In this document: piece after piece, positions 43,219 through 62,109 of the stretch
Numbering within the stretch: the first letter of the stretch is position 1
Layout of the letters: each line of letters starts with the position of its first letter
Assembly: GCA_016792845.1 (NCBI GenBank)
Contig: JAEUKH010000043.1
Coordinates: forward strand, 25,846 to 89,845
Direction: 5' to 3'
Length of the DNA: 64,000 bases
DNA from: Myxococcales bacterium
GTDB lineage: Bacteria; Myxococcota_A; Polyangia; Polyangiales; Ga0077539
Notes under the pieces: generated by a model
Databases searched by the model: none
Told to the model about the DNA's origin: nothing
Seen by the model: the letters and a program-made list of their open reading frames with translations, nothing else
Translations under genes and position numbers: made by a program

Positions 43219-44556
43219 ATGGCAGACATCGGCCCCCGCCCTCGCACGTCGCTCCCCATCGCGCCCAAGGCCGCTCCGGCGCGGCGGTTTCTGCCCCTGG
43301 CCGACGCGGTTCGACCCATCGACCAGCGCTGGCAGCCCATCTACGCCGTCTGGGAGATCACCCTCCGCTGCGACCTCGCGTGCCGTCACTGCGGCTCCCG
43401 CGCGGGCAAGACCCGCCCCGACGAGCTCAGCACCGCCGAGTGCCTCGACCTCGTCAAGCAGATGGCCGAGCTCGGCACCCGCGAGGTCACCCTCATCGGC
43501 GGCGAAGCCTATCTCCGCGAAGACTGGACGGAAATCGCCCGCTCGGTGCGCGACCACGGCATGGAGTGCACCATGACCACGGGCGGCCGCGGCCTCACCC
43601 CCGAGCGCGTCAAGGCCGCCAAAGAAGCGGGCATCCGCAGCGTCTCGGTGAGCGTCGACGGGCTCGAAGAGACCCACGACGCGCTGCGCGGGGTCAACGG
43701 CTCGTGGCGCGCCGCCTTCGAGGCCCTGCGCAACCTCCGCGAGGCGGGCGTCCATTGTTCGGCCAACTCGCAGTTCGGCCGGGCGTCGCTCTATGAAATG
43801 CCCGAGGTCTTCGAGCACCTCGTCGCGGCCGGCATTCACTCTTGGCAGACCCAGCTCACCGTCGCCATGGGCCGCGCCGCCGATGAGCCCAAGCTCCTCC
43901 CTGAGCCCTTTCAGATCCTCGAAGTAATGGCCATGCTCGCGCGGCTGAAGAAGCGCGCCGACGCCCACCGCGTGCGCATCTGGCCGGGCAACAACATCGG
44001 GTACTTCGGGCCCTACGAGTCGACCCTGCGCGGCACCCTGCCCCGCGGTCACATGGCCTCGTGCGGGGCCGGGCGCTCGACCCTCGGCATCGAAGCCGAC
44101 GGGAGCATCAAGGGTTGCCCCTCGCTCCCCACCAGCGAGTACACCGGCGGCAACATCCGAGACAACAGCCTCCGCGACATCTGGGAGCGCTCGAAACCCC
44201 TACGGTTCACCCGCGATCGCACCGTCGAAGACCTCTGGGGCTACTGCCGCGACTGCTACTACAACGACACCTGCCGCGCGGGCTGCTCGTGGACGACCCA
44301 CGTCCTCCTCGGCAAGCCCGGCAACAACCCCTACTGTCACCACCGCGCGCTCGAGCTCTTGCGCGAGGGCAAGCGCGAGCGCGTGCGTCGGGTCTCGCCC
44401 GCGCCGGGTGAGCCCTTCGACCACGGCATCTACGAGATCGTCGTCGAAGACTGGCCCGCCGACGAGCTGGCCCGCGCTGAGGCCCTCGCGCGCACCGGCG
44501 AAGGCTGGCTGAGCGACGGCCCCACGCCCCCCGAACCCTTGCCAAACCGCGGCTGA
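43219..44556 (+). CDS. Radical SAM enzyme with C-terminal SPASM domain (peptide/protein-modifying rSAM maturase family)
   Basis: CX3CX2C cluster is WEITLRCDLACRHCGS. SPASM is CGAGRSTLGIEADGSIKGCP plus CRDCYYNDTCRAGCSW. Confidence 0.85.
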   Translation: MADIGPRPRTSLPIAPKAAPARRFLPLADAVRPIDQRWQPIYAVWEITLRCDLACRHCGSRAGKTRPDELSTAECLDLVKQMAELGTREVTLIGGEAYLREDWTEIARSVRDHGMECTMTTGGRGLTPERVKAAKEAGIRSVSVSVDGLEETHDALRGVNGSWRAAFEALRNLREAGVHCSANSQFGRASLYEMPEVFEHLVAAGIHSWQTQLTVAMGRAADEPKLLPEPFQILEVMAMLARLKKRADAHRVRIWPGNNIGYFGPYESTLRGTLPRGHMASCGAGRSTLGIEADGSIKGCPSLPTSEYTGGNIRDNSLRDIWERSKPLRFTRDRTVEDLWGYCRDCYYNDTCRAGCSWTTHVLLGKPGNNPYCHHRALELLREGKRERVRRVSPAPGEPFDHGIYEIVVEDWPADELARAEALARTGEGWLSDGPTPPEPLPNRG

Positions 44557-54206: not shown

Positions 54207-54544
54207 ACCCCGACGCCGCCCGCCTCGCCACAGCCCTCGGCGCCCTCTCGCTCGGGCTCACCTACCTCGCCACCACCGCGGGCAAGCTGGGGCTGTTCTA
54301 CTACCTCCCGACCGCCCACCGCTGGACCCTCGCCCCCCCGACGGCCCTCATCGCGATGGACTGGTTCGCCCGCGCCCTCTGGAGTCTCGTCGCCTTGGCC
54401 CTCGGGTTCGGCTCCGGCCTCGCCCTCGCGCGCCGCTGGCCGACCCGCGCCGCGACGCTCACCCGCGCCCTCTGGAGCCTCGCGGTGGTCGCCCTCAGCT
54501 GGTCTGCGGTCTTCACCGCGATGTGGCTCGTCTACGGTCGCTAG
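54203..54544 (+). CDS. Small polytopic membrane protein (translationally coupled, ATGA overlap)
   Basis: The ATG at 54203 overlaps the TGA of the upstream gene. Three to four TM helices. Confidence 0.5.
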   Translation: MNPDAARLATALGALSLGLTYLATTAGKLGLFYYLPTAHRWTLAPPTALIAMDWFARALWSLVALALGFGSGLALARRWPTRAATLTRALWSLAVVALSWSAVFTAMWLVYGR

Positions 54545-54594
54545 CCGCCTGCGCCGACGCGCTTCGCCTTGTCGCGCCGCGCGCTTCGCAGTTT

Positions 54595-54800
54595 GTCGTC
54601 GCGGCGTTGCAGGCCCTGCACGCCCCCGCCCGCGCTGTCGTCGCGGCGTCGCAAGCCCCGCACCCGCCCGCCCGCACTGTCGTCGCGGCGCTGCAAGCCC
54701 CGCACGCCCTCGCCCGCGCTGTCGTCGCGGCGTCGCAAGGCCCGTACGCGCCCGCCGGCACCGTCGTCGCGGCGTCGCAAGCCCCGCGCCGCGCTCGGGC
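54595..54800. repeat. Intergenic tandem array, ~4.9 copies of a 42-bp unit (gtcgtcgcggcgtcgcaagccccgcacccgcccgcccgcact consensus)
   Basis: Direct reading: units at 54595, 54637, 54679, 54721, 54763 with a few substitutions each. Located 70 bp upstream of the small zinc-ribbon gene. Confidence 0.85.
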
Positions 54801-54871
54801 TGGAATCTTCGCCCGAGCGGGCTACACTCGGCCCGCGCGTCGAACCCTTTGACCGTTGAGGAGCGAGCACG

Positions 54872-56529: not shown

Positions 56530-57204
56530 ATGGTCACCCGGGTCTACGTCGACGTCGACACCCAACACGACTTCTGTTCACCCGACGGGGCGCTCTTTGT
56601 GCGCGGAGCTCCCGCGACCATGGGGCCCATCGCGGCGCTCCTCGGGGCCGCGCGGCGCGACGGCTCTCCCATCGTCGGGAGCGTCGACAGTCACAGCCAC
56701 GACGCCTGGGAGTTCGCCACCAACGACCGGCGCGGCCCTGGGGGTGAGAAGCCGAACTTTCCGCCGCACTGTGTGAAGGGCACGGCGGGGTGGTTGAAGC
56801 TCACCGAGACGCTCCCTTCGCGTTTTTATTTCGTGCCGATGGCGCCCGACGTCGACGCGGCGGGGCGCATCCCCGCGGGCACCGAGGCGGTGTACTTCGA
56901 GAAGGAGGTCTACTCGCTCTTTGCGAACCCCAACGCCGAGGCCGTGCTCGACGCGTTCTGCCCTCCGGGGCCGGTCGAGTTCGTGGTCTTCGGCGTGGCC
57001 ACCGACTACTGCGTTGCGGCCGCGGCCCGGGGCCTGGTCGGGTGGGTCGCTGCCCGCTCCGCCCGCGCTGGGAGCCGCGTTCGGCTCGCGGTCGATGCGG
57101 TGGCGGCGGTCGACCCTGCGCAGGGCGAGCGCACGCTCCGGGCGCTGGCCGAAGAGGGCGTCGCCCTCGACACGACGGCGTCGATTCTGGCGCCCACAGG
57201 CTGA
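56530..57204 (+). CDS. pncA: Nicotinamidase/pyrazinamidase (isochorismatase superfamily)
   Basis: DVDTQHDF matches the PncA DxQxDF motif, PPHCVKGTAGWLKL matches HCVxGTxG, and ATDYCV carries the catalytic Cys. Confidence 0.75.
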   Translation: MVTRVYVDVDTQHDFCSPDGALFVRGAPATMGPIAALLGAARRDGSPIVGSVDSHSHDAWEFATNDRRGPGGEKPNFPPHCVKGTAGWLKLTETLPSRFYFVPMAPDVDAAGRIPAGTEAVYFEKEVYSLFANPNAEAVLDAFCPPGPVEFVVFGVATDYCVAAAARGLVGWVAARSARAGSRVRLAVDAVAAVDPAQGERTLRALAEEGVALDTTASILAPTG

Positions 57205-57403
57205 CCGGAGCTGAGCGGCGGGCCCGGCCCTTGCGCTTTGGGGTGAGGTCACACCGGGGGAGACGTCAGCCGCGCGCGAGTCTCGCCACAGCTGCGCATT
57301 GTGCGCCCCACAGCGATGAGGTCACGCCCCCGCCGCCGCCCGCCCCGGGGAGCCCCGCACGGGGTTGACGCCCGGGCGCGGAAGCGGCACACACCGCAGC
57401 GGA

Positions 57404-58708
57404 ATGTTGCTGCAATTTGCGGTAGAAAACTACCTCTCCGTGCGCGAGCAGGCGGTGCTCTCGATGCTGAAGCCGCCAGGCGCTCGGGTCGATCCGCGGC
57501 ACGTCGTACGGGTCGGCGACACCTGGGAGGTGCTGCGCTGCGCGGCCCTCTACGGCGCCAACGCATCGGGCAAGTCCAACCTCGTCAGGGCGCTCGGCAC
57601 CTTCCGACGCCTGGTCACCCACGGCGTGCGTCCCGACGAGACGCTCCCCGCGCAGCCCTTCTTGCTCGACGGGGCCCATGAATCAGCGCCTACGCGCTTC
57701 GAGCTTGAACTACTCCTCGATGGGCAACACCACGCCTACGGCATCGTGTTCACCCGTGAACGGGTGGTGCAAGAGTGGCTCTACCGCGTGCACGGCGCGC
57801 GCGAAGAGATGCTCTTCGAGCGCAAGCTTGACCCGGCGGGCGAGGCCGCGGTCATCACCCTCGGCGAGACCGTCACGGCCGACCCGACGCGGCGACAGTT
57901 TCTGAGCTTTGTGGCGACGGGCACCCGCGACAACCAGCCCTTTCTCACCGAGTGCGGCGAGCGCAAGGCCCATGAGCTCACCCCGGTGCTGGCGTGGTGC
58001 CGTGAGACGCCGACGATCATTCGGCCCGAAGCGCAGCACCTTGCGCTCACGGGCTTCCTCGCCGATGCGTCAAACCGCAGTTGGGTCGAGGCGAAGCTCC
58101 ACGGCTGGGGCACGGGGGTCGCGGGCATCGAGATTCAGAAGCGACCCGTCGACGGCCCGATTCCCCTCGTCAACGACGAGCCTCACGGGCTCCAGCGAGA
58201 CGAAGCGGGCCTGTGGCAACGGAGCGTGAGGTTCAGGCACGGGCCCGAAGGCTCGCCCACGCTGCCCTGGTCAGACGAGTCTGATGGCACGCGTCGGCTG
58301 ATGCACCTCTTGCCCGCGCTGCGGCGCGCGACAGAGCACGGCAAGGGCCCGTCGCTCCTCGTCATCGACGAGCTCGATCGAAGCCTGCACACCGCGCTCA
58401 CGCGACAGTTCGTTGAGACCTTTCTCGACGGGTGTGCTGCCGATGGCTCTCAAACGCAGCTGATCTTCACGACCCACGACACCAACCTGCTCAACGGCAA
58501 GTTGCTACCGCCCGCCAGCATCTGGTTCGTTGAGAAGGACCGCCACGGCGCGTCTCAGCTGTACGCGCTCGCTGAGTTTCCCGACGCCCAGGTCGATCAG
58601 CTGCTCGAACACCTCGAAGACGGCTATCTCCAGGGCCGCTTTGGCGCCATTCCCTTCATCGCCTCTCGCGACCAGCTCGCGTGGCGGCCCCCTCGCGGCG
58701 CGGCATGA
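57404..58708 (+). CDS. AAA_21-type ABC-like ATPase (AbiLi/RloA-like; putative defence-system ATPase)
   Basis: N-terminal MLLQFAVENYLSVRE. Walker A GANASGKSNLVRAL. Walker B/D-loop SLLVIDELDRSLHTAL. H-loop LIFTTHDTNLL. The track start (TTG 57365) is less likely than the ATG at 57404. Confidence 0.75.
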   Translation: MLLQFAVENYLSVREQAVLSMLKPPGARVDPRHVVRVGDTWEVLRCAALYGANASGKSNLVRALGTFRRLVTHGVRPDETLPAQPFLLDGAHESAPTRFELELLLDGQHHAYGIVFTRERVVQEWLYRVHGAREEMLFERKLDPAGEAAVITLGETVTADPTRRQFLSFVATGTRDNQPFLTECGERKAHELTPVLAWCRETPTIIRPEAQHLALTGFLADASNRSWVEAKLHGWGTGVAGIEIQKRPVDGPIPLVNDEPHGLQRDEAGLWQRSVRFRHGPEGSPTLPWSDESDGTRRLMHLLPALRRATEHGKGPSLLVIDELDRSLHTALTRQFVETFLDGCAADGSQTQLIFTTHDTNLLNGKLLPPASIWFVEKDRHGASQLYALAEFPDAQVDQLLEHLEDGYLQGRFGAIPFIASRDQLAWRPPRGAA

Positions 58709-59331
58709 GCCTGCGAGACCGAACCAGACTGCTCCAACGCAACGTCCAGCTCCGCGACGCCCGGCTCTTTGTTGTCGCCACAGAAGGGGCCGAGACCGAG
58801 CCGAGGTACTTCGAGGCCCTTCAAACCCACGGCCTCGTGCCGCGCTCTCGCATCAAGCTGCACCTCCTGCCCACCACCGACGGACGTTCGGCGCCGCAAC
58901 ACCTCATCGAGCGGGTCGAGACCTTCCTGTCGCAGTATCGCCTTCTCTCCGACGACGCGGTCTGGCTTGTGCTCGACACCGATCTCAAGTCTGGAAACCG
59001 GTGCGCGCAGCTCTCCGAACTCACCACGCTCTGCCGCCAAAAGGGTTGGCAGGTCGCCATCAGTCACCCCTGCTTCGAGCTTTGGCTGCTGCTCCACGTC
59101 TGCGACGCCCCCGCGGGGCTTTCCGACTGCGCCAGCGTGCAGAGCGCCTTGCGCAACGAACTTGGGGCCTACCAGAAGGCCACGACCCCTGCGCTTTGCT
59201 GTGAGCCTTCGGCGCTCGAAGACGCCGTCAAGCGCGCCCGATCGCTCGACCCCGCGTCGGCCGAGTGGCCCGCGAGCCTCGGAACGGGCGTCTACCGCTT
59301 GCTCGAAGCGCTCAGGGCTTCGATGCCCTGA
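58705..59331 (+). CDS. RloB-like protein (AbiLii-like partner of the AAA_21 ATPase)
   Basis: N-terminal RLFVVATEGAETEPRYFEAL matches the RloB signature (iLIVcEGekTEpnYF). A downstream acidic VLDTDLKSG is present. The ATG overlaps the upstream TGA (ATGA at 58705-58708). Confidence 0.7.
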   Translation: MSLRDRTRLLQRNVQLRDARLFVVATEGAETEPRYFEALQTHGLVPRSRIKLHLLPTTDGRSAPQHLIERVETFLSQYRLLSDDAVWLVLDTDLKSGNRCAQLSELTTLCRQKGWQVAISHPCFELWLLLHVCDAPAGLSDCASVQSALRNELGAYQKATTPALCCEPSALEDAVKRARSLDPASAEWPASLGTGVYRLLEALRASMP

Positions 59332-60319: not shown

Positions 60320-60910
60320 CCTCCTCCGACCACCCCCGACGCGGCGTGACCTGCACCCCCGGGGGCGTACGGCCTTGCGTCTGGCGCGACCTCACCCCCT
60401 GAAGGGCGCACGGCCCCGCGTCTGGCGTGACCTCACCCCCTGGGGGGCGTACGGCCCCGCGTCTGGCGTGACCTCACCCCCCGGGGGGATGCCCGGCCCT
60501 CGCGCCCCCTCTCCCTACCAGGAGAGGGGCAAATATAGACAAACTCAACCACCAGACAAAACAATAAGACTGTTAACTCGACATATCATTGCTATAATAA
60601 TAAAGAATCATCTTACGCTTGTCGTGTTTTGCCCCTCTCCTGACAGGGAGAGGGGGCACGAGGGCCGTACGCCCCCAAGGGGGTGAGGTCACGCCAGGTG
60701 CGGGGCCGTACGCCCCCAAGGGGGTGAGGTCACGCCAGGTGCGGAGCCGTACCCCCCCAGTGGTTGGGGTCACGTCGGGGGCCGATCGGCGCGCAGGCTC
60801 GCAAACACAAGGAAGTTCCGCAGGTAAACCTCAGCCTGACAGGGTGAGGTCACGCACGCCTCGAACCGCCCCGCCCCCTCGGCCCCTCAGCCCCTCCTCC
60901 GACCACCCCC
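60320..60910. mobile_element. Composite intergenic repeat element (MITE-like or iteron/origin-like): 18-bp terminal direct repeats, inverted arrays of a ~41-bp repeat, two identical hairpins, ~100-bp AT-rich core
   Basis: The 18-bp direct repeat cctcctccgaccaccccc is at 60320-60337 and 60893-60910. Three or so copies of gggggcgtacggccccgcgtctggcgtgacctcaccccct lie at 60361-60486, and their reverse complement x3 at 60656-60790. Hairpins cccctctcc-N5/6-ggagagggg are at 60506-60529 and 60632-60655. The core 60530-60630 is ~32% GC in a ~72% GC background. Confidence 0.6.
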
Positions 60911-61062
60911 CAGCGCGTGGGGCGTACCCCTGACGCTTCGTTGTTTCGACGCTTGAGCCTCGGGGCGCTGTAGCACTAGGCTCGTCGCCGACTGCGGCGC
61001 ATCGGGGTACCGCTGGGGTGCTCGGGGTTCGCGCTGCGTCTGCCACGCGGGGGTCGCGCGCC

Positions 61063-61794
61063 ATGCCAACCGTCTATGTCACCGAAATCGAACGCTACCA
61101 TCGGGCCCTCTCAGGCGCCGCCGCCAACCTGCTGACCCGGGTGCAAGAGGGCGTCGACGCGCGACGCAGCGCCCGCGGGCACGCGCCGCCCGTCGCCATC
61201 GGGGCGGTGCTCGAATTCGCCCTGCTCGAAGCCGCCGCCGCGGTCGAACAGCTCGCCGCAGCCGAACAACGCCTCGACCTCGAAATCGCCGACGACGCCG
61301 AACCCAGGGCGCGACGCGATCTTCTGAGAGAGTCGCTCCGGGGGCTCGTCATCGAGGCCCGCGAGGCCATCGCAGGCGCCTACGGCGAGGCCGCCCTCAC
61401 CACCCTCGGCATCGTGGGCGGCACCGAGTCAGATGCCACCACGCTCTTGCGTCAAGCGCGGCTCCTCGCGCAAGCCAGCGAGCGGCTCGAGAGGCTCAAG
61501 GCGCGGCGCGGCGTGCGGCTCAACCTCGACGACCTCGCCTCGGAGCTCGAACCCCTGGCCTCGCAGCTCGACGCCTCGCTCCGAGACGTGGCCCGCGAAG
61601 AGGCCGAGCTCAAAGACGCCAGGGTGAACCGTGACGGGGCCGCGACCCGGGCCGAGCGTGCGCTCTCGGCGCTCCTGTCGACCGTCCATGCGGCCCTGCG
61701 CCTCGCGGGGCTGTCTGACGAGATCGCGCGTCTGCCCGCCCGCACCACCGCGCGAAGCTCGGGCCCGAGCGAGGGCGCTCCGCCGACGGCCTGA
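61063..61794 (+). CDS. Hypothetical alpha-helical protein
   Basis: Ala/Leu/Glu/Arg-rich, predicted coiled-coil-like. No domain recognised. Confidence 0.45.
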   Translation: MPTVYVTEIERYHRALSGAAANLLTRVQEGVDARRSARGHAPPVAIGAVLEFALLEAAAAVEQLAAAEQRLDLEIADDAEPRARRDLLRESLRGLVIEAREAIAGAYGEAALTTLGIVGGTESDATTLLRQARLLAQASERLERLKARRGVRLNLDDLASELEPLASQLDASLRDVAREEAELKDARVNRDGAATRAERALSALLSTVHAALRLAGLSDEIARLPARTTARSSGPSEGAPPTA

Positions 61795-61829: not shown

Positions 61830-61952
61830 CCTTCCGGGCGCCTCAGAACGCCTCTCCCACCCTGGTACCGCCCTTCCGAGCGCCTCGGAACGCCTCTACC
61901 ACCCTGGTACCGCCCTTCCGAGCGCCTCGGAACGCCTCTACCACCCTGGTAC
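61830..61952. repeat. Intergenic tandem array, three copies of a 42-bp unit (ccttccgagcgcctcggaacgcctctaccaccctggtaccgc)
   Basis: Direct reading: units start at 61830, 61872, 61914. The third copy degenerates after ggtac. Confidence 0.85.
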
Positions 61953-62109
61953 GAGCGTTTTGCACACCTTGACCTACATCACCCAGGCTTCGAGGGCCGC
62001 CCCGAGGCGACCGGAGACACCTCGACAGAGATGAAACAAAGTTGATGCAAAGGTCATCGAAGGCGAGCCGGGGCCCGCTGTGGGTTTTGCGTCCGGCGTG
62101 GAGTCTGCC

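Follow-up and report, generated by a model that had tools for sequence, protein, structure and literature searches.

The window analysed here is a stretch of 64,000 nucleotides (nt) from contig JAEUKH010000043.1 of a Myxococcales bacterium (assembly GCA_016792845.1). An earlier reading of the bare sequence (the original prediction) had placed an AbiL-like module between positions 57365 and 59331, made up of an AAA_21-type ATPase gene and an RloB-like gene and possibly acting in abortive infection. Two long open reading frames (ORFs) are indeed present there on the + strand, but the first gene most likely starts at ATG 57404 and not at TTG 57365, which is simply the first possible start codon in its open frame. 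We favour ATG 57404 because homologues begin with MLLQF and because the database protein that is 100% identical to the gene 1 product, which comes from an NCBI record named 'MAG: Myxococcales bacterium' (MAG, metagenome-assembled genome), is 434 amino acids (aa) long. M1 and L2 are also nearly invariant among the gene 1 homologues (alignment A3). The locus is arranged as follows.

57205-57403, + strand: spacer 5' of gene 1 (199 nt), presumed to hold the promoter, with two diverged repeat units
57404-58708, + strand: abiLi-like gene 1, coding for a 434-aa ATP-binding cassette (ABC; Rad50/SMC-like, AAA_21) ATPase, presumed infection sensor or regulator
58705-58708, + strand: ATGA junction, at which the gene 2 start overlaps the gene 1 stop (read directly from the sequence)
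58705-59331, + strand: abiLii-like gene 2, coding for a 208-aa RloB-family protein, presumed Toprim-type nuclease effector

Gene 2 runs from ATG 58705 to TGA 59329-59331 and a database protein of 208 aa matches its product with 100% identity. The gene 2 ATG (58705-58707) and the gene 1 TGA (58706-58708) together form the predicted ATGA, an overlap which implies that the two genes are probably translationally coupled. All peptides quoted in the original prediction were recovered as well, namely GANASGKSNL (residues 51-60), LLVIDELDRSLH (318-329) and TTHD (356-359) in gene 1 and FVVATEGAETEPRYFEAL (residues 21-38) in gene 2. Both reading frames are open and all catalytic motifs are intact. The GC content at the three codon positions, 0.72/0.47/0.83 for gene 1 and 0.68/0.49/0.82 for gene 2, is coding-like and follows the pattern expected of real genes at a genome GC content of 72%.

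Gene 1 is predicted to code for an AbiLi-like ABC ATPase

The gene 1 product matches the Pfam family AAA_21 (PF13304) over the whole profile (1.8e-35, 124 bits, cut-off 27). It was matched by 55 PADLOC models, at the top of which stands AbiLi (PDLC02335) with an E-value of 2.6e-79 and 264.6 bits, followed by a generic AriA/AAA_21 model at 1.7e-35; many models of candidate ATPases lie far lower, and the match to the GajA models is weak (1e-4). The following motifs can be assigned in the protein.

Residues G51-N59: Walker A
Residues E292-S-D-G-T296: signature
Residues D322-E323 and on to H329: Walker B and D-loop
Residue H358: H-loop
Residues G407-F418: C-terminal tail

In two alignments of 24-28 homologues (A2 and A3), residues G51, N53, G56, K57, S293, G295, T296, D322, E323, H329 and H358 are invariant. 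In architecture, the pair departs from the family consensus at one point, the variable insertion that separates the two ATPase lobes, which is somewhat shorter. An AlphaFold2 (AF2) model reached a mean predicted local distance difference test score (pLDDT) of 88 and a predicted template modelling score (pTM) of 0.88, and a Foldseek search with this model returned Rad50 (4.5e-11), the Septu protein PtuA (5.5e-10) and the Thermus OLD nuclease (9.1e-10), along with SMC heads. By sequence profile, PtuA is also the nearest relative with a solved structure (8ee4, 3.5e-07), while AriA is a marginal match (E 0.0046). Gene 1 is therefore best described as coding for a predicted ABC ATPase of the Rad50/SMC-like AAA_15/21 group with a Rad50-like head fold.

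The original prediction had named a housekeeping ABC clade, for instance a RecF or SbcC fragment, as the placement that would contradict it. The RecF/RecN/SbcC class was rejected for gene 1, as no curated equivalog is matched and SMC_N stays below its cut-off (21.7 bits versus 40, at the Walker A region only). NCBIfam gave no match to RecF, RecN or SbcC; its sole match was a sub-threshold ModF fragment (21.5 bits versus 459).

The C-terminal tail G407-F418 (GYLQGRFGAIPF; positions 58622-58657) varies very little among AbiLi-like ATPases of many phyla. The tail motif falls within residues 409-434, the sole region of the model with a pLDDT below 50, and is thus predicted to be disordered in the monomer. 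More speculatively, GYLQGRFGAIPF may serve as a docking peptide for the nuclease, for a neighbouring protomer or for oligomerization.

Gene 2 codes for an RloB-family protein with a Toprim-like acidic triad

The gene 2 product matches Pfam RloB (PF13707) with 2e-32 and 113 bits (cut-off 31.5), and its sole PADLOC match is AbiLii (PDLC02337; 4.8e-22, 77 bits). A non-RloB family for gene 2 was the other finding that the original prediction had named as contradicting it, and no second Pfam family was found even at E<=10. DUF4435/AriB in particular gave no match in Pfam at that threshold or in PADLOC. Among 25 RloB members compared with Pfam at E<=10, DUF4435 was likewise absent, and a lone Toprim_3 match at 0.051 does not count as evidence.

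Conserved residues of gene 2 are E26, D84, D91, D93, S120, P122, F124, W127 and H131. No variation is seen in the RloB alignment at Y35, D84, D91, D93, P122, F124, W127 or H131, and position 26, read by eye, is E or D in every aligned sequence. The AF2 model (pLDDT 89.6) has a beta-alpha-beta core, in which E26 closes strand 20-26 and D91 closes strand 85-91; D93 follows two residues after D91. The classical Toprim layout, as ascribed in PMC11464382 to Aravind et al. (1998), places a Glu after strand 1 and a DxD motif after strand 3. Judged by the alignment and the model, gene 2 appears to carry an intact Toprim-like acidic triad, E26/D91/D93, in a Toprim-like core.

Comparisons with solved structures were less informative. 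A Foldseek search of the Protein Data Bank (PDB) with the RloB model gave nothing significant, only generic alpha/beta folds; the best structural matches of the model were OLD and GajA (6p74, 6nk8, 8u7i). No RloB relative was found among PDB chains with the sequence of either protein or with the RloB profile. An hhalign comparison of the RloB profile with the single P2 Old sequence was negative, and a homologue search with the C-terminal region of P2 Old, which is presumed to be Toprim, returned four fragments, which did not yield a usable profile for comparison. We presume that gene 2 codes for a Toprim-type nuclease effector.

The pair belongs to the AbiL family

The profile matches above agree with the original prediction, both in the AAA_21 and RloB identities of the two proteins, which score well over the cut-offs and far above what chance would give, and in the AbiL-type assignment, for which AbiLi and AbiLii are the best PADLOC matches. 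AbiL, known from the Lactococcus lactis plasmid pND861 and modelled in PADLOC, has the same gene order and orientation as the window pair, an AAA_21 ATPase gene followed by a gene for an RloB protein of about 200 aa. For a direct comparison we used a homologous pair from a Lactococcus prophage, proPhi7 ORF55/56, which is annotated as 'abortive phage resistance protein'. This pair scores 254 and 64 bits on the AbiLi and AbiLii models, and the window pair, with 265 and 77 bits, equals or exceeds it. The window and proPhi7 ATPases align end to end over 435 columns with 26% identity (E 8e-29), and the two RloB proteins match with an E-value of 9e-5. Identity to this lactococcal-type pair, which stands in for pND861 in the comparison, is just 26% and 22% for the two proteins, and whereas the lactococcal pairs lie on a plasmid or a prophage, the window pair is chromosomal in a high-GC myxobacterial host.

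By sequence, every feature that marks an AbiL system was found in the window pair, which appears to be an intact but ordinary copy with no unusual architecture. AbiL has been placed in one group with PARIS (phage anti-restriction-induced system), OLD and MADS, systems that combine an ABC ATPase with TOPRIM (PMC11464382, PMC12409363). It was phage resistance that defined the Lactococcus prototype (Deng et al., 1999, as described in PMC13064643), and the review records of it that it acts after transcription, and no more (PMC13064643). We consider it likely that the pair is a chromosomal AbiL-family anti-phage module, which was probably acquired horizontally. The window pair is a further member of the already known AbiL kind.

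The finding extends the defence repertoire known from an uncultured myxobacterium by a well-supported AbiL-type system. To our knowledge, phage defences of myxobacteria have been little studied. The locus is no better an entry point to the questions of AbiL trigger and target than copies in cultivable hosts, and the wider value lies in the results at family level, that is the near-obligate coupled pairing described below, the very large size of the family and, by profile search, the lack of a solved RloB structure among PDB sequences.

The ATPase and RloB genes are paired across phyla

Relatives were collected by scanning one genome per GTDB species with a single peptide pattern, which confirmed at least 543 RloB relatives; 80 loci were kept for the analysis of pairing. 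Phyla among the matches listed include Myxococcota, Planctomycetota, Verrucomicrobiota, Acidobacteriota, Bacteroidota, Chloroflexota and Pseudomonadota. An AbiLi-like ATPase gene lies immediately upstream of the RloB gene on the same strand at 78 of the 80 loci. The two loci without one are L029, which begins at a contig edge, and L031, a truncated remnant, in which only the C-terminal tail of the ATPase is left (1400-1480), fused to an unrelated coding sequence, in front of an intact RloB gene. By eye, the sequence before the tail in L031 looks gyrase/topoisomerase IV-like. Of 76 junctions, 67 have an ATPase stop codon that overlaps the RloB start codon by 1 nt or more, and 37 of these show a 4-nt NTGA overlap, where RloB start codons were assigned by a nearest-start-codon heuristic. 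When 1.84 billion cluster representatives were searched with the profile, 11,731 RloB-family clusters (50% identity) were obtained at E<=1e-3, and nearly all of the best 150 of these are stand-alone proteins of about 200-220 aa. Across phyla, the pairing of ATPase and RloB thus appears essentially obligate and translationally coupled. The closest homologous pair, in another Myxococcales MAG, is 53% and 60% identical and has entirely different neighbours.

Three further loci (L025, L028 and L061) have an ATPase gene that is broken across two frames; these and L031 are decayed copies. The window pair, with its intact motifs and open frames, shows no such damage, and it would be extremely unlikely for it to be a non-functional remnant, or for it to be a housekeeping DNA-repair pair of an SMC/RecF-like ATPase and a RecR-like Toprim protein. 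RecF and RecR, too, are an ABC ATPase together with a Toprim protein, and the weak SMC_N match at the Walker A region could be read in the same direction, but neither protein of the pair has an NCBIfam match to RecF, RecN, RecR or SbcC, and occurrence on phages and plasmids in differing contexts is unlike that of a core gene.

Related pairs lie on mobile elements and beside defence genes

In the P2-like Klebsiella phage ST13-OXA48phi12.1, an AbiL-type pair (L009, 2501-4487) has the replication endonuclease region on one side and the portal gene on the other. On the linear map of P2 itself, tin and old follow gene A at the right end, and the position of the Klebsiella phage pair is what we take to be the slot of old/tin on the circular P2 map. 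The pair in the Lactococcus prophage is found downstream of the lysin gene. On an Agrobacterium plasmid, an AbiL-type pair adjoins genes for a DncV-like cyclase and a ThiF-family protein, a context of the CBASS type (cyclic oligonucleotide-based anti-phage signalling system), and on a Sorangium chromosome a pair is found near IS66 genes. RloB relatives are also often encountered on mobilizable plasmids of Klebsiella and E. coli that are small, at about 5 kb.

The 126 immediate neighbours of related pairs include four PglZ proteins, four that match PglX-type models, two with EcoEI_R_C (type I R subunit), two with integrase domains and a TrwC relaxase; the rest are mostly unrelated single matches. 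In L056 (975-9094), the genes for PglX, AbiLi, AbiLii and PglZ follow one another on one strand, so that the pair is embedded in an operon of the bacteriophage exclusion (BREX) type. In all four of the loci L056, L044, L063 and L064, pglZ is the next gene downstream of the pair on its strand, and in L086 the pair is found directly upstream of a type I hsdR gene. RloB was also named from type I restriction-modification (R-M) loci of Campylobacter (PMC10802264, PMC10440598). One might therefore read the window pair as an RloAB-type accessory of an R-M or BREX system, which fires when a phage inhibits the partner system and which depends on that partner. We regard this as very improbable for the window copy. 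Most related loci lack such neighbours, and no methyltransferase, Hsd, Pgl or helicase gene was found among the flanking proteins scanned at about 43-64 kb of the window. The same flanking proteins gave no defence match in PADLOC apart from a weak one to pVip (prokaryotic viperin), in line with the small defence islet among unrelated neighbours that the original prediction had described. The pVip matches belong to a 445-aa protein encoded 13 kb away (43219-44553), the best being 2.9e-12 over about 110 residues, and we suspect that they reflect generic radical-SAM similarity and not a defence gene. The AbiL pair is a solitary islet.

Likenesses to other systems and a proposed mode of action

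Several known systems share parts with the window pair. Like the pair, PARIS (AriA/AriB) is a two-gene operon that pairs an ABC ATPase sensor with a separate small effector that is regarded as a Toprim nuclease; its effector is AriB (DUF4435), whereas that of the window pair is RloB (PF13707). PARIS was rejected as the class of the pair on this account, given an RloB effector and no DUF4435/AriB match. Gene 1 has its ATPase fold in common with P2 Old, class 1/2 OLD proteins and GajA, but in OLD and GajA the ATPase and the Toprim domain are fused in one polypeptide, whereas the window pair has them on separate proteins. Gabija, which requires the helicase GajB as well as GajA, was rejected for the same separation of domains, for the weak GajA matches and because no GajB-type helicase gene was found next to the pair. 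PtuA of Septu is among the nearest relatives of gene 1, but the Septu effector is the HNH nuclease PtuB and gene 2 is RloB; with RloB alone and no HNH nuclease, Septu was rejected as well. Campylobacter RloA/RloB share the RloB family and an ATPase partner with the window pair but lie in type I R-M loci, whereas the window copy lies outside such a locus, and the class of RloAB pairs in R-M loci was rejected in the absence of any R-M family among the flanking proteins scanned.

By analogy, PARIS is the likely template for the working of the window pair. We propose that the ATPase would act as both sensor and antitoxin, an oligomer of which keeps the nuclease inactive in uninfected cells, and that RloB would be a metal-dependent nuclease and the toxin. 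A phage-derived cue would alter the conformation of the ATPase and thereby free or activate the nuclease, which could then cut nucleic acid of the host or the phage. The leading candidate target would be tRNA, in keeping with AriB and OLD, and somewhat likelier than DNA, which is what GajA cuts. Cleavage would halt phage growth, with the infected cell being sacrificed. Translational coupling could set the ratio of ATPase to RloB. We propose such a release mechanism because of the analogy with PARIS, P2 OLD and pairs of an AAA antitoxin and a TOPRIM_OLD toxin. In PARIS, an AriA hexamer sequesters the Toprim nuclease AriB until a phage protein binds, and the freed AriB cleaves tRNA (PMC11464382, PMC10802264, PMC12409363). 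P2 OLD has been reported to be an abortive tRNase (bioRxiv 10.64898/2026.07.10.737580), the AAA antitoxin/TOPRIM_OLD toxin pairs were validated in toxicity-neutralization assays (PMC10440598), and GajA of Gabija is called an endonuclease in a title cited in PMC11464382.

Some points weigh against an AbiL anti-phage module that works in this way. According to Deep et al. (PMC10802264), AbiL and RloAB are structurally distinct from PARIS, and the sequestration model may therefore not transfer to them; whether AbiL works like PARIS was left open by the authors (PMC10802264, PMC13064643). Reviews list the trigger, the target and the stoichiometry of AbiL as unsolved (PMC13064643, PMC10802264). For the window pair and its close relatives, an anti-phage role is suggested by comparison. 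Finally, the window holds no other defence gene, and the locus therefore draws no support from a surrounding defence island.

Base composition and neighbouring genes

GC content at third codon positions (GC3) of the pair is 0.83 and 0.82, which is 4-5 standard deviations (SD) below that of 15 long genes of the window (0.90 +/- 0.017), and the overall GC content of the pair is 0.67 versus 0.73. The low values suggest horizontal acquisition. No tRNA gene that could have served as an integration site lies nearby. In a scan for promoters and terminators no sigma-70-like promoter was detected, a negative that says little for this phylum, and the single terminator-like match lies inside the upstream gene.

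The gene upstream of the pair (56530-57204), named pncA in the original prediction, codes for a protein of the isochorismatase family (PF00857, 2.8e-13); the family stands, but an identity as PncA is not demonstrable, with 34 bits on the PncA equivalog against a cut-off of 174. The downstream ORF had been called a lipoprotein. A lipobox-like LALGGC can be read by eye and the ORF is lipoprotein-like in this respect, but it has no family match. A gene for a Cys-rich repeat protein is found further upstream, and GGDEF, YhfC and chaperone-like genes lie further off.

The atypical GC3 and the position of the pair between repeat units (see below) might instead be read as the marks of a toxin-antitoxin addiction module, in which RloB is the toxin and the ATPase the antitoxin, and which mainly stabilizes its own small mobile segment and is not dedicated to defence against phages. 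The AAA antitoxin/TOPRIM_OLD toxin pairs behaved as toxin-antitoxin systems in neutralization assays (PMC10440598), and the abundance of RloB relatives on mobilizable plasmids of about 5 kb would fit as well. On the other hand, phage resistance was the trait that defined the Lactococcus prototype in the account of PMC13064643, and relatives are found in a P2-like phage, in BREX operons and next to CBASS-type genes, positions that speak for immunity. Nor does one role rule out the other, as PARIS has both (PMC10802264). We hold it to be distinctly unlikely that addiction is the main role, and an AbiL-type anti-phage module remains our preferred reading of the pair.

Repeat units flank the pair

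A 13-nt motif, GGTGAGGTCACRC (allowing at most one mismatch), occurs eight times in the 64-kb window against 0.32 expected, and all eight copies flank the AbiL pair together with the lipoprotein-like ORF, two in the upstream spacer and six in a composite element at 60342-60860. The repeats, defined by the repeat families D4, D6 and D7 and the inverted pairs I7, I12, I15 and I16, form two features.

About 57221-57258 and 57301-57328: diverged repeat units in the spacer 5' of gene 1, of the same unit as the element at 60342-60860
60342-60860: composite inverted-repeat (palindromic) element, with units of roughly 41 nt around an AT-rich core

In the composite element, three tandem 41-nt units (60356-60488) face inverted copies (60662-60743, plus one at 60843). 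The AT-rich core is about 90 nt long (about 60530-60620) and has a small hairpin on either side (60506-60529 and 60632-60655). Rfam gave no match between 56300 and 61200. Among the related loci, the motif GGTGAGGTCACRC occurs solely in contigs of the same organism, and a metagenome scan for the flanking repeat motif returned 36 scattered single-copy matches with no repeat arrays, which are probably due to chance. Two Logan contigs of the same organism, L001 and L002, end at the composite element (L002 by coordinate arithmetic), which is expected because assemblies break at repeats.

The repeat units could represent the boundary of a mobile element or island, REP-like (repetitive extragenic palindromic) repeats or operator sites. 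One might speculate that the pair and the lipoprotein-like gene are the cargo of a small, undescribed mobile element, which may be bounded by the two diverged units at 57221-57328 on one side and by three inverted and three or four direct units at 60342-60860 on the other. A separate speculation concerns the AbiLi tail (GYLxGRFGAIPF), which may act as a family-wide latch that tethers RloB, a form of control unlike the coiled-coil sequestration of PARIS. Taken jointly, we consider these two ideas rather unlikely to hold.

Two other tandem repeats were observed in the window. Three units of 42 nt, 86-100% identical, are found at 61830-61955, just downstream of a 258-aa ORF (61018-61794). At 54500-54870 there is a very GC-rich tandem DNA repeat of roughly 33 nt, with periodic translations such as RRRDDSAGGRV and ATTARAGACGA.

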